Shown here one piece after another: positions 12,306 to 20,233 of a stretch of DNA of 24,000 bases. The notes below the pieces were generated by a model, which was not told the DNA's origin, made no database searches, and saw only the letters and a list, made by a program, of their open reading frames with translations. Position 1 is the stretch's first letter, and each line of letters starts with the position of its first letter. The translations under genes and the position numbers were made by a program. This DNA comes from Embleya scabrispora DSM 41855 (GTDB taxonomy: Bacteria > Actinomycetota > Actinomycetes > Streptomycetales > Streptomycetaceae), in the NCBI RefSeq assembly GCF_000372745.1, contig NZ_KB889665.1:125433-149432 (forward strand), in the 5' to 3' direction.

Positions 12306-13934
12306 TCAGCTCGCGGTCGACCCCCACGGCCAGGCGGCGTCCCGGCCCGCCTCCAGCAGCGGAACCATGGTGAACGCGGCGTCGGTCAGGCCGCCGAAGG
12401 TGTGCCGATTGTGTGCGCCGGACGGGGTGTGTCCGGTGTGGTAGCCCGCCAGGTTCCAGGTGTACAGCGGCGTGCTCTCCGGGAGCGATGCGGTGATTGC
12501 CTGCGCGTCGTGATTGTTCTGCTCGTCGGTGACGATCAGCACCCGGTCGTGCGCCCGGTACTCCTGACGCAGCGCCAGGGCGGTGTCCGTGCCGCCGCCG
12601 AGGAAGAAGCCGTCGTGGCGCCAGCGCTCCAGCGAGCGCAGCAGCGACTCGCCGCGGCCCAGCGGGAACGCCTTGGTCCGCGCGCCGGACGGGTCGTTCC
12701 AGGTGCGCCGGGCGCTGGAGAAGGACACCACGTCGGCATAGCCGCAACGGCGGCCCAGCGCGATGCCGAACAGCGCGGCGGCGTCCCAGCGTCGGAGCGT
12801 GCCGTCCCGAGAGAAGCCCGAGTCCATGCTGGAACTGGTGTCCACCAGAATCAGCGTATGGCCGGGCAGTTTCGGGATGTTCGCCAGCGCGTGGCCGAGC
12901 GCCAGCTCCAGTGGCTGGGACCAGCGCAGCGACGGCGCGGCGCGGTACGCGGACACGAACCGGAACGGCAACTGTCGGGCCCGAAGCACCTCTTCGGGGT
13001 CGGCCAGGCGAGCCGCGACCTGCCCGGCGAGCACGTCGTCCACGCCTGCCTCGTCGAAGTTGCGCAGGTTGCGCAGCAGCGCCATGTACCCCATCGACGG
13101 GATCACCGCGGACCACGCCGCGGCGTCCATCGGCCCCTGGAGCCAACCCGCCAGCGCTTCCCAGGTGATCCCGGCGGCACGCAGCCGCTCGCCCGCGTCG
13201 GGTGCGCGCAGCAGCGCCGCGCGGTCGGCGACGGGTACGGCCATCAGCTCGGCGCGCGCCGTGAGCATCGGGTCCGACGCGGGCGGCGTGGCCGTGTCGG
13301 GGTGGTGCCTGCGGTCCAGTGCGTAACCGAACAGCGCGCCCTGCCAGGGCTTTTCCGGGGCCGGGCGCGGGTGGATCAGGTTGAGCACGTCGCCGAAGCG
13401 GTAGCCCTTGGTCGCGGTGTCGTACTTGAGCAGCGCCTGCGGCGTGTACAGCCGGCGCACCGCGTCCTCGATCCCGCGCTTGATCGGCTTGGGTACGTTG
13501 CGGCCGTAGCGCGAGGTCCAGTAGGCGAGCAGCTCACCGGGCTCGTCGGCGCGCCGCAACACCGCGTCCACCGCCTGCCGGGACAACCCGGGCAGCCCGA
13601 ACTCCAGGCGGGCCCGCGTCATTTCGGCGGCGCCGACGATGGCGGCGGTGCGCATGTTGGCATCGCGGCGCAGCCAGGTGAGCAGGCCGAGCAGCCATTC
13701 GCCGTCGTATACGGCCAGTTCCTGGACGAGCTGGGTGAACCGGTCGTCGCGCGCGCCGCCGCTCTCGTAGAACGTGTCGTTGCCGACGAAGTTCGTGACG
13801 GCGAGCAGGAACAGTTCGCTGCGTGCGTCGCGCGTGTAACCCGTGCCGCCCTGGTGGTTGACCGTTTTCTCGCCGGTGCTGCGAATCGGCGAGGCGGTGG
13901 CGGGTCGGGCACCGCGCAGGTTGAATCGAGACAT
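12306..13934 (-). CDS. rsr: Rsr, the bacterial Ro60 orthologue (TROVE domain plus C-terminal vWA domain)
   Basis: TROVE-type N-terminal region (VNHQGGTGYTRDARSELFLLAVTNFVGNDTFYESG...WLRRDANMRTAAI) and a vWA domain with the MIDAS motif LILVDTSSSMDS (DxSxS). The chosen start is MSRFNL (complement of 13932-13934). The longer ORF to 14330 would run through the structured RNA upstream. Confidence 0.9.
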   Translation of the reverse strand: MSRFNLRGARPATASPIRSTGEKTVNHQGGTGYTRDARSELFLLAVTNFVGNDTFYESGGARDDRFTQLVQELAVYDGEWLLGLLTWLRRDANMRTAAIVGAAEMTRARLEFGLPGLSRQAVDAVLRRADEPGELLAYWTSRYGRNVPKPIKRGIEDAVRRLYTPQALLKYDTATKGYRFGDVLNLIHPRPAPEKPWQGALFGYALDRRHHPDTATPPASDPMLTARAELMAVPVADRAALLRAPDAGERLRAAGITWEALAGWLQGPMDAAAWSAVIPSMGYMALLRNLRNFDEAGVDDVLAGQVAARLADPEEVLRARQLPFRFVSAYRAAPSLRWSQPLELALGHALANIPKLPGHTLILVDTSSSMDSGFSRDGTLRRWDAAALFGIALGRRCGYADVVSFSSARRTWNDPSGARTKAFPLGRGESLLRSLERWRHDGFFLGGGTDTALALRQEYRAHDRVLIVTDEQNNHDAQAITASLPESTPLYTWNLAGYHTGHTPSGAHNRHTFGGLTDAAFTMVPLLEAGRDAAWPWGSTAS

Positions 13935-13955
13935 GGGAACCCCCGTGGAGATGGG

Positions 13956-14126
13956 GGGAGGTGCCGCGTCGGGGTGCCCGAGATCAAGGTCGGCCGGGCG
14001 TTCAAGGTGCTCTACCGCTGAGCTACCGCCGGCGAACCGGCGACCGGGACTCGAACCCGGGACTGCCCCATTATCAGTGGAAGAAATCCCGGCCTGCGCA
14101 CCGGGCACCCCGACATTGGTCCTCCC
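13956..14126 (-). ncRNA. yrlA: YrlA-type Y RNA candidate with a circularly permuted tRNA-like module (boundaries approximate)
   Basis: Minus-strand read 14070->14003: UGGGG-CAGUC-[CCGGG-UUCGAGU-CCCGG]-[UCGCCGG-UUCG-CCGGCGG]-UA-[GCUC-AGCGGUA-GAGC]-A-CCUUG. This gives a T-arm with a canonical 7-nt T-loop, a 7-bp acceptor-like stem capped by a UUCG tetraloop, a U8/A9-like linker, and a D-arm with a GG loop. The module is closed by three helices: 7 bp (14094-14088 with 13998-13992), 14 bp (14114-14101 with 13981-13968) and 6 bp (14126-14121 with 13961-13956). It lies directly 5' of rsr on the same strand. Confidence 0.75.
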
Positions 14127-14308
14127 GAGATCATGACCACGCCCGGTCGGGACTGTGTCCCATCGTCCTTGAAATGGAAGTAACCGGTCGTGTGCGCACC
14201 GGGAGGTGCGTTGCTTCGTCGGGAAGCCTAGGCGGATCGGGTCGTCGGGGACATCGATTTTCGGCGTGCCGAGGTGCCGGAGGGGTCGGTGGTGCGACGC
14301 TGGGTTGC

Positions 14309-14638
14309 ATGACCGCACCTCGTGATCCATCCGCTCCGGACGTGACCATCCTTACCGGCGGCGCGCTGTGGCCCACGCCGGGGCAGTTGCGCGCCGAGCT
14401 GCCGGACGGGGCGCGGGAGCAGTTCGAGGACGAGTACGGCCGGGCGCTGGACCACGCGCGCGACGCGGGGGATCTGGCCCAGCTCGCGAACGTGCTGATC
14501 CCGTGGCAGCGGCGGCTGGTGCACCACCGCAACGGGGACTACGAGGCCGTGTTGGAGCGGGCCCGGCGGATCCGAGACGGCGATCTGTCGGGCATCGTTC
14601 CGCCGCGGGTGGGCCGGTTGATCCGGGCACACCGGTGA
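14309..14638 (+). CDS. DUF6247-like small protein (antitoxin-position gene of a two-gene module)
   Basis: The pattern LRAELPDGAREQFEDEYGRALDHARDAGDLAQLANVLIPWQRRL matches my recollection of actinobacterial DUF6247 proteins. I chose ATG 14309 because the ORF-track extension from 13961 overlaps the Y RNA and is not protein-like. Its stop TGA (14636-14638) overlaps the next gene's GTG. Confidence 0.6.
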   Translation: MTAPRDPSAPDVTILTGGALWPTPGQLRAELPDGAREQFEDEYGRALDHARDAGDLAQLANVLIPWQRRLVHHRNGDYEAVLERARRIRDGDLSGIVPPRVGRLIRAHR

Positions 14639-19139: not shown

Positions 19140-19679
19140 TCAGGCCGGTGACACGAACGTCCGGCGGGCCAGGCCCGCCTGTACGTCGGTGAGCGCCTTG
19201 ATCAGGCACAGGCACACCGCGAAGAAGGCGAGCCCGCCGATCGCGTGCACGGCCCGGACCCCGCCCAGGGTCGGTCCGCCCCACGCGTCGTGATAGTCGC
19301 CGTCGCCATACCGGATCGGGTAGGTCAGGTTGCGGAGTGTGTTGCCGTACGCGTACCCGGCCAGGACCAGGGTCGGGATGCCCAGCGCGGCGTCGGGAAC
19401 GCTGTGGCCAAGCACCCGGAGCGCACCGGGGGCGGCCCGATCGGTTGCCTCGCCCAACCGCGGATCCAGGAACCGCCGGGCCGCCGCGAGTCGCAGTCGA
19501 GCCGCGCGGGACGACCCACCGGTGAGCACCAGGCCGATGCTCAACAGGCCCAGCGGCAGTGCGATCAGTGCGTACGCGGAGCGTCGGGCGGCGTGGCGCG
19601 GCGAATCGGGCGCGAATCGGCGCAGGACGCGCCGCGAGCGGACGGGGACGGGGGCGTGGCGGGCCGGGGTGAGCGTCAT
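19140..19679 (-). CDS. Stand-alone membrane 'putative sensor' domain protein; first gene of the kinase/regulator operon
   Basis: Several TM helices (YALIALPLGLLSIGLVLTGG, IPTLVLAGYAYGN, AIGGLAFFAVCLCLI). It resembles the sensor module often fused to HisKA_3 kinases in actinobacteria (from memory). The chosen start is MTLTPARH (complement of 19677-19679). The upstream part of ORF 19140-20135 is not protein-like. Confidence 0.6.
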   Translation of the reverse strand: MTLTPARHAPVPVRSRRVLRRFAPDSPRHAARRSAYALIALPLGLLSIGLVLTGGSSRAARLRLAAARRFLDPRLGEATDRAAPGALRVLGHSVPDAALGIPTLVLAGYAYGNTLRNLTYPIRYGDGDYHDAWGGPTLGGVRAVHAIGGLAFFAVCLCLIKALTDVQAGLARRTFVSPA

Positions 19680-20233
19680 GGCGAGGTCCTTGGGGCGTGC
19701 CCACGAGTACGCGGTACGTGCTGTTCGGTACGCGGGCGGTCGGTGCGCGATGCGCGGCGCGCGGGTGCCGGCTTCGGCACCGTGTTTCCCAAGGTAGGAG
19801 CGGGCGCGGCGGTGGACATCACACTGCGGCGCCAACTCCGGAGTGATACCGCGGTAGGGGGTCGGCCGACCGGCGGGTTCGGAGCCGGTGACGCGCGATG
19901 GGCGGCATGCCCGGGCGACATCGCGCGGGTCGGTACGCCGGACCCGGGCGGTCGGGGCCGCGAAGGGGAGAGAGGTCGGGCGGCGGCCTGCGGCGCCGGG
20001 CAACGACCGGGCCGCCGGGTCAACCGAACGGTGACCCGGGCCGATGTGAGAAGAGGATCGGCCCGCCGAGATCCAGGCGGCTGCGGAGACCGGGACTCGA
20101 GGCCCCGTACATTTCACCGCCCTTGCGGGCTCCATGGAGTATCCGCGACCTACGCACCGGTGGGCCGACCGGAACCGTAGCGTGCCGGGCCGGCTCGGGG
20201 CCAGGCAATTGACGGGTGCCCGGCGCCTCCGGG

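Follow-up and report, generated by a model that had tools for sequence, protein, structure and literature searches.

The window analysed here is a 24,000-nt stretch of the Embleya scabrispora DSM 41855 genome that carries on its minus strand rsr (12306-13934), the gene for a Ro60 orthologue. The 542-aa product contains a Pfam TROVE domain (E 5e-13) and displays 100% identity to the NCBI TROVE-domain protein of Embleya scabrispora. The divergent neighbour of rsr is a DUF6247 gene that starts at 14309, leaving a gap of 374 nt between the two genes. Within this gap positions 13956-14126, 171 nt on the minus strand, very probably encode a YrlA-class Y RNA of E. scabrispora. The 3′ end of the RNA (13956) lies 22 nt from the rsr ATG (13934) on the same strand, well inside the 4 kb from a Ro60 orthologue within which YrlA RNAs are located. 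A YrlA-type Y RNA had been proposed here in a preliminary description made from the sequence alone, and the call is borne out by the score of a covariance model, by covariation, by linkage to rsr and by membership in the same family as a YrlA of the Mycobacterium smegmatis type. Published YrlA RNAs are recognized by their location beside rsr in the same orientation, by the succession of T arm, closed acceptor stem, UA and D arm, and by a long stem in which the 5′ end pairs with the 3′ end (Chen et al. 2014, PMC4201824; Wang et al. 2018, bioRxiv 10.1101/312249); the RNA of the window displays all of these structural hallmarks. Since 2013-2014, reports of YrlA RNAs have covered more than 250 bacteria and phages, actinobacteria included. 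The preliminary call is therefore correct, and the unannotated RNA adds one more example to a documented class of bacterial non-coding RNAs, tRNA mimics that associate with Ro protein. It does not define a new class, but has clade-specific features in its long rod, its variant motifs and its companion minimal Y module (mini-Y).

The minimum free energy (MFE) fold of 13956-14126 computed with RNAfold (-91.8 kcal/mol, z = -3.35) recovers the T arm, the UUCG-closed stem, the UA, the D arm and the three helices proposed in the preliminary description. The long stem formed by the two ends of the RNA, as is typical of YrlA, consists of three helices. The outermost rod helix, of 6 bp, has the 5′ strand GGGAGG (14121-14126) and its partner at 13956-13961, or alternatively at 14201-14206 (see below). 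P1 is a 14-bp helix between GUCGGGGUGCCCGG (14101-14114) and UCGGGCACCCCGAC (13968-13981), and P2 a 7-bp helix between GGCCGGG (14088-14094) and CCCGGCC (13992-13998). The internal loop between P1 and P2 is spanned on the 5′ strand by the motif GGUGCGCAGG (14093-14102), the putative Rsr-binding site, and is formed on the 3′ strand by GACCUUGAUC (13982-13991), in which a GAUCUC block is kept across the family. P2 is followed by an anticodon-arm-like hairpin, CCA-CUGAUAA-UGG (14068-14080; pairs 14080-14078 with 14070-14068, loop 14077-14071), and then by GG (14066-14067), which pairs with C14007 and C14006, respectively, as the equivalent of the tRNA 27:43 and 28:42 pairs. A 5-nt variable loop, CAGUC (14061-14065), supplies in its last nucleotide, C48, the partner of G15 (14018) in the Levitt pair. 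The T arm, CCGGG-UUCGAGU-CCCGG (14044-14060), which is also recovered in an Rfam local match, has the U54 U55 C56 R57 A58 loop and the G53:C61 pair characteristic of this element. It is succeeded by a 7-bp acceptor-like stem closed by a tetraloop, UCGCCGG-UUCG-CCGGCGG (14026-14043), by the UA linker (U8 and A9; 14025-14024) and by the D arm, GCUC-AGCGGUA-GAGC (14023-14009). Every coordinate given earlier for the T arm, the UUCG-closed stem, the UA and the D arm was correct on the minus strand, as were those of the rod of 7-bp, 14-bp and 6-bp helices, the distance of which from the rsr start codon, previously put at about 20 nt, is exactly 22 nt.

The architecture is conserved in relatives. Eighty rsr loci were collected from Streptomycetaceae, Nocardia, Spirillospora, Nocardiopsis and Actinokineospora, and almost every one has between one and three modules with a T arm within 500 nt upstream of rsr. 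Alignment A3 comprises the 54 sequences of the module type orthologous to the window's RNA, and its RNAalifold consensus runs from P1 via a conserved internal loop to P2, and then through a small hairpin to the T arm, acceptor stem and D arm. Pair counting over the 35 consensus pairs showed that 98.9% of the cells are paired, compared with 34-48% when the partners are slid by 1-3 columns; compensatory changes were seen in 18 of the 35 pairs, and the consensus structure has a covariation score of 0.333, as opposed to 0.04-0.07 for the slid controls. These data show a fold preserved, with covarying pairs, in rsr-linked orthologues of Streptomycetaceae, Nocardia and other actinobacteria. Compensatory changes affect six of the seven consensus pairs of P2, the inner seven pairs of P1 (the outer part covaries among the long-rod loci) and five of the six aligned pairs of the acceptor-like stem, which has at least 7 bp in 53 of the 54 relatives. 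The UA and the D arm (GCUC/GAGC, A14, G18 G19) are invariant in all 54, while the tertiary Levitt 15:48 pair (G14018:C14061) is G:C in 48 and A:U in six without exception; the same restriction to G:C or A:U at this pair has been described for YrlA (Chen et al. 2014, PMC4201824). The extension of P1 and the outer GGGAGG/CCUCCC helix are present in the 38 loci that have no further module between this stem type and rsr. Each of these long-rod loci folds into a rod of 20-27 bp, the middle segment of which varies in sequence yet stays paired; in the window this segment is weakly paired (2 bp), and in the three other Embleya CAAC/GUUG lengthens the helix.

The alignment also revises the region between P2 and the T arm. 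The segment 14087-14071, previously regarded as a large single-stranded loop, holds the conserved hairpin, the middle pair of which (A3 columns 54:64) is C-G in 44 of the 54 relatives and G-C in eight, a compensatory change. A further proposal, a 5-bp anticodon-stem-like pairing of CCUUG with UGGGG, survives in part. Its pairs G14066:C14007 (GC in 37, CG in 16 and AU in one relative) and G14067:C14006 (GC in 50, AU in three and CG in one) covary with zero mismatches; the helix as a whole was rejected because its remaining three pairs conflict with the better-supported hairpin at 14068-14080. This hairpin corresponds to the ‘V' arm of YrlA in Chen et al. 2014 (PMC4201824). Its loop (A3 columns 56-62) has C and U in 54 of 54 sequences, two variable positions, U in 48, A in 42 and A in 52, a C-U-N-N-U-A-A pattern that, read from the sequence, is an anticodon-loop-like signature. 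The loop may be a genuine anticodon-loop mimic for a tRNA-binding or tRNA-modifying factor.

Covariance model R1, constructed from 32 relatives and zero Embleya sequences, matches the core of the RNA (13972-14109, minus strand) over its full length with 118.7 bits (E 4.2e-27). In 764 kb of rsr loci R1 produces 154 matches, all on the rsr strand and nearly all at most 500 nt upstream of rsr. The YrlA of the M. smegmatis type, a sequence outside the training set of R1, scores 70.8 bits over its full length, and a mycobacteriophage YrlA adjoining the phage Ro gene scores 44.3 bits. The M. smegmatis-type locus (L085 1730-1999, minus strand) lies on a metagenome contig that was found by means of a probe whose sequence appears in Chen et al. 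2014, and it contains exact matches to both published YrlA probe targets and to the published rsr primer. As R1 scores both RNAs, the window's RNA and this M. smegmatis-type copy of an experimentally validated YrlA belong to one structural, covariance-model family. Further R1 matches are located downstream of rsr on the same strand, at L028 6497-6639 (117.6 bits), L031 9187-9323 and L062 9180-9316 and 9383-9519; these matches, in Nocardia and Kitasatospora loci, may be extra YrlA copies outside the leader.

The closest point of comparison is the YrlA of M. smegmatis (Chen et al. 2014, RNA 20:1715; PMC4201824), which is likewise actinobacterial, upstream of rsr and on the same strand. Both RNAs contain the CCA-CUNNUAA-UGG hairpin, a 5-nt variable loop, the T arm, a 7-bp acceptor stem with a 4-nt loop, the UA and the D arm, and each shares its leader with a second Y RNA. 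The order of the modules differs, being mini-Y, YrlA, rsr in the window and YrlA, YrlB, rsr in M. smegmatis. The stem motif is GGUGCGCAGG / GAUCUC in the window but GCCGGACG / CACCUCACACGC in M. smegmatis, the loop of the acceptor stem is UUCG rather than ACGC, and the equivalents of the G14066 and G14067 pairs are formed by AA and UU in the M. smegmatis-type RNA. Unlike M. smegmatis YrlA, the window RNA extends below P1 into an extra rod of ∼20 bp. Within L085 the M. smegmatis-type YrlA and YrlB share 5′ GCCGGACG..CGAUCGGUUA and 3′ CACCUCACACGC, a stem motif that differs from the GGUGCG[A/C]AGG / GAUCUC of the Streptomycetaceae family. The literature search found nothing specific on Streptomyces Y RNAs.

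Salmonella Typhimurium YrlA (RF02553), whose tRNA-like domain has a crystal structure (PDB 6CU1, cited in bioRxiv 10.1101/312249), is likewise a circularly permuted mimic of tRNA with its acceptor stem closed. It has in common with the window RNA the T and D arms, the UA linker, the Levitt pair and the 5-nt variable loop, and in both the terminal stem formed by the two ends holds the Ro-binding site, which in the window is assigned by homology. In contrast, the acceptor stem has 7 bp in the window whereas the Salmonella RNA lacks a 7-bp stem (bioRxiv 10.1101/312249), a hairpin is inserted in the anticodon-stem region of the window RNA, and the stem is much longer and GC-rich. The UA ‘kink' dinucleotide of Salmonella YrlA is UU in the window, where rsr is monocistronic and lacks the RtcR/RtcBA operon context of the Salmonella gene. 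Deinococcus radiodurans Yrn1 and the metazoan Y RNAs, which are also associated with Rsr or Ro60, have in common with YrlA a long terminal stem with a Ro site and a distal effector module. [quoted passage not shown]

Several observations weigh against the assignment to the YrlA class. No Rfam family matched the window at the gathering thresholds. In E-value mode the YrlA model RF02553 aligned to 14006-14067 with 34.1 bits (E 1.1e-5), a local match over model positions 24-84 of 114 that covers the tRNA-like core only and stays below the gathering cut-off of 69 bits; the Rfam search suggested in the preliminary description thus recovers the core of YrlA, although at a sub-threshold score. At its cut-off, however, RF02553 detected none of 15 actinobacterial rsr loci, and it gave only 39.3 bits for the mycobacteriophage YrlA beside the phage Ro gene. 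As all 15 loci and the phage YrlA also fail, the low score reflects the model rather than the RNA, and the cut-off is uninformative for the actinobacterial clade. The same failures explain why the Y RNA is unannotated.

Two sequence motifs of published Y RNAs are also deviant in the window, and both count on the same unfavourable side. The published GNCGAAN0-1G has no exact match, the window displaying UGCGCAGG (14100-14093) and the relatives UGCGAAGG. At the homologous place the window reads GGUGCGCAGG, 26 relatives GGUGCGAAGG, the M. smegmatis-type RNA GCCGGACG and the Rfam YrlA consensus GGCGAAUG, and 47 of the 54 family members carry the 5′-strand motif as GGUGCG[A/C]AGGC. Because the validated M. 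smegmatis-type RNA itself has GCCGGACG, the published motif is loose within actinobacteria. Two other candidates for the Rsr motif were rejected: GACCAAUG (14121-14114), a segment that is variable among relatives, and an exact GACGAAG at 14220-14214, which is unconserved in Embleya and probably at or before the transcription start. In place of YUAY the window has UUUC (14086-14083). The conserved A of this motif is U in all four Embleya and A in 48 of the 54 relatives, and the deviation is best read from the alignment as a clade-specific change in a homologous column, the architecture being otherwise the same. To these are added two features of the leader, the lack of a terminator and the ability of GGGAGG to pair in two ways, and one of the acceptor-stem loop, each of which is taken up below.

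Upstream of the YrlA-type RNA lies a second, minimal Y-like module (14119-14207, minus strand), a YrlB-like mini-Y that scores 28.7 bits with R1 when the filters are off. It contains P1 (CCUCCCG with CGGGAGG), the GGUGCG loop, P2 and UUAC-UU, and the tRNA-like domain is replaced at its apex by a small region that includes GGGAC-ACA-GUCCC. Homologues of the mini-Y occur in 65 of 81 rsr loci; P2 covaries in them, and the consensus fold is the YrlA stem architecture. On the same strand, 6.1 kb from rsr, there is another Y-like module, the third (20060-20165; R1 33 bits, E 1.7e-6), in which sequence and fold reveal a degenerate T arm. Its elements are a 12-bp P1, GGUGCGUAGG, UACU and the T-arm-like hairpin CGGGGC-CUCGA-GUCCCG; a -10-like hexamer, TACGGT, is located upstream, and the module overlaps the start of a mechanically called open reading frame (ORF), 19140-20135. 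Both modules share the Y stem with the YrlB of M. smegmatis and S. Typhimurium and lack the full tRNA-like domain, and 20060-20165, like M. smegmatis YrlB (PMC4201824), retains a T-arm-like hairpin. The YrlB-like label is derived from the architecture and from partial matches to a model of the YrlA stem, not from sequence homology to published YrlBs, and the positions differ from those of published YrlBs, one module being upstream of YrlA and the other 6 kb away.

Nearly all of the 81 rsr loci examined contain one to three modules, and multiple YrlA-like copies near one rsr have been reported previously. In many Streptomyces and Kitasatospora loci up to three are present, in the order YrlA, mini-Y (sometimes with a T arm) and a second, long-rod YrlA-like RNA. 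Compared by sequence with these, the Embleya array appears reduced, to a mini-Y and one YrlA that joins the hairpin of the first module with the rod of the last. The preliminary description was incomplete, as it missed the mini-Y, took the hairpin for a loop and treated a documented class as highly novel. A weak Rfam match to Scr2736, a Streptomyces small RNA family, at 14140-14223 on the plus strand (15.7 bits, E 6.9) is at chance level. It is antisense to the mini-Y, and the common CGCACCGGGA is the reverse complement of the invariant UCCCGGUGCG; the match may be due to chance, or to a family that overlaps a Y module annotated on the opposite strand.

The modules and rsr appear to share a transcript. 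A -10-like hexamer, TAGGCT (14225-14230, minus strand), is kept in four Embleya loci, and TAnnnT occurs within 25 nt upstream of P1 in 48 of the 54 relatives. Since a consensus sigma-70 scan found zero promoters at the locus, TAGGCT is treated here as the putative promoter of the Y RNA-rsr transcript. A terminator scan returned none between the Y RNA and rsr, so a free Y RNA requires processing; the lone ‘terminator' predicted, at 14105-14088, was regarded as spurious, being inside the YrlA stem. GGGAGG (14121-14126) is Shine-Dalgarno-like, and the two CCUCCC copies with which it can pair, at 13956-13961 or upstream at 14201-14206, resemble the anti-Shine-Dalgarno end of 16S rRNA. As the P1 of the mini-Y and the outer helix of the YrlA both use GGGAGG 14126-14121, the two are mutually exclusive, and the folding energies of the two states in the window lie within 1.3 kcal/mol of each other. 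Immediately downstream, CCCCC (13957-13953) can pair with GGGGG (13944-13940) in a possible hairpin (13940-13957, minus strand) that would sequester the ribosome-binding site, a putative function. This hairpin overlaps the 3′ end of the rod by 2 nt, and an analogue is predicted in nearly all of the 38 long-rod loci.

These features could mean that the region acts mainly in cis, as a structured rsr leader in which Rsr binds modules of its own 5′ untranslated region and autoregulates its translation; the competing pairs would be GGGAGG with either CCUCCC, and CCUCCC or CCCCC with the GGGGG Shine-Dalgarno sequence. Such a leader, which we consider unlikely, would not preclude release of the RNA as a Y RNA as well. 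It is favoured by the terminator result, by a rod that ends 22 nt from the ATG, by a GGGAGG and two CCUCCC copies that are invariant or nearly so, and by the recurrence of the rod and Shine-Dalgarno hairpin in nearly all 38 long-rod loci despite spacers of 20-53 nt and differing flanks. Part of the GGGAGG signal is trivial, however, because any complement of GGGAGG automatically complements a Shine-Dalgarno sequence. Thermodynamic modelling revealed no consistent coupling of the GGGAGG state with Shine-Dalgarno pairing, the rod and the Shine-Dalgarno hairpin overlap in the window by only 2 nt, and the homologous RNAs of M. smegmatis and Salmonella are processed and act as free Rsr-bound RNAs (PMC4201824). 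The more elaborate proposal that the leader of Streptomycetaceae-like actinobacteria is an array of up to three Y modules doubling as an autoregulatory switch is a little more doubtful still; if it were true, rsr translation or the processing of the precursor would depend on how far the modules are occupied by Rsr.

Two further readings would deny the region a role as a Y RNA altogether. It could be the functionless remnant of a tRNA gene, or of a site where two tandem tRNA genes once adjoined. ARAGORN indeed reports a ‘tRNA-Ile(GAU)' at 14036-14104, in which the loop CUGAUAA (14077-14071) is taken as the anticodon loop; the same kind of anticodon-like hairpin loop causes an Rfam tRNA match just above the cut-off in the equivalent part of another locus (L033, 3824-3893), BLAST yields matches to tandem tRNA junctions in cyanophages, and YrlA has been suggested to originate from a dimeric tRNA (bioRxiv 10.1101/312249). 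The ARAGORN call is a false positive, since the hairpin is used as the anticodon arm and a real D arm is lacking, and the Rfam tRNA model gave zero matches in the window. The T arm, acceptor stem and D arm stand in permuted rather than cloverleaf order with the acceptor closed instead of having a free end, and compensatory conservation in more than 50 species, always beside rsr on the same strand, is unlike a pseudogene. As a description of the present-day RNA, a tRNA relic is thus refuted by the covariation, the R1 score and the rsr linkage, and we rate it as extremely improbable. As an account of the origin of the RNA it is plausible, and the anticodon-loop-like signature of the hairpin fits the proposed dimeric-tRNA origin. 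The region could alternatively encode an N-terminal extension of Rsr. Mechanical ORFs do run across the gap between rsr and DUF6247, contrary to the earlier statement that no ORF explains these ∼370 nt, and one of them, ORF 12306-14330, is an in-frame extension of rsr without a stop codon. The substance of that statement holds, as these ORFs are unsupported. The deposited 542-aa protein starts at 13934, and 12 homologues align with it from M1, sharing an MSRFN start in which R3, F4 and N5 are nearly invariant. In a sister Embleya genome the gene callers left the equivalent 393 nt upstream of rsr empty, the four Embleya loci differ by 1- and 2-nt indels inside the region, and conservation tracks base pairs rather than codons. 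The homologue starts, the indels and the base-pair conservation rule out the extension, which has virtually no chance of being correct. A Pfam search of the guessed neighbouring ORFs in the window was mostly empty.

With a YrlA-class Y RNA as the preferred reading, its biogenesis and action can be proposed by analogy with characterized systems. The RNA would be transcribed from a promoter near 14225-14230 together with the mini-Y (14119-14207) and rsr, and would then be excised from the common precursor; a role of the near-perfect rod as a processing stalk is speculative. The stem is predicted to bind the Rsr ring via the conserved GGUGCGCAGG / GAUCUC loop region, leaving the tRNA-like elbow as a putative effector-binding module. 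In Deinococcus and Salmonella the Y RNA tethers Rsr to PNPase. Cleavage by RNase P after the UUCG loop and addition of a CCA tail probably generate a two-piece RNA, a step suggested by the acceptor stem, which, as in M. smegmatis, is 7 bp and stacked on the T arm, the arrangement typical of the RNase P-cleaved M. smegmatis subtype. The UUCG loop lacks the encoded AC (including C74) that precedes CA addition in M. smegmatis, and the RNase P and CCA step is less certain for this reason. It is speculative that the overlap between the 3′ strand of the rod and the ribosome-binding-site hairpin (13957-13940) couples folding of the Y RNA to rsr translation.

The concept of a Y RNA is unchanged by this locus. 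The structure of actinobacterial YrlA is refined by an anticodon-arm-like hairpin, the equivalents of the 27:43 and 28:42 pairs, a near-universal 7-bp acceptor stem and a long rod. A clade-specific model would recover the actinobacterial YrlAs that fall in the RF02553 gap, and the conserved minimal Y module could be studied in genetically tractable Streptomyces. For Embleya scabrispora itself, the Ro-Y RNA locus is now complete where current annotation pipelines leave a blank.

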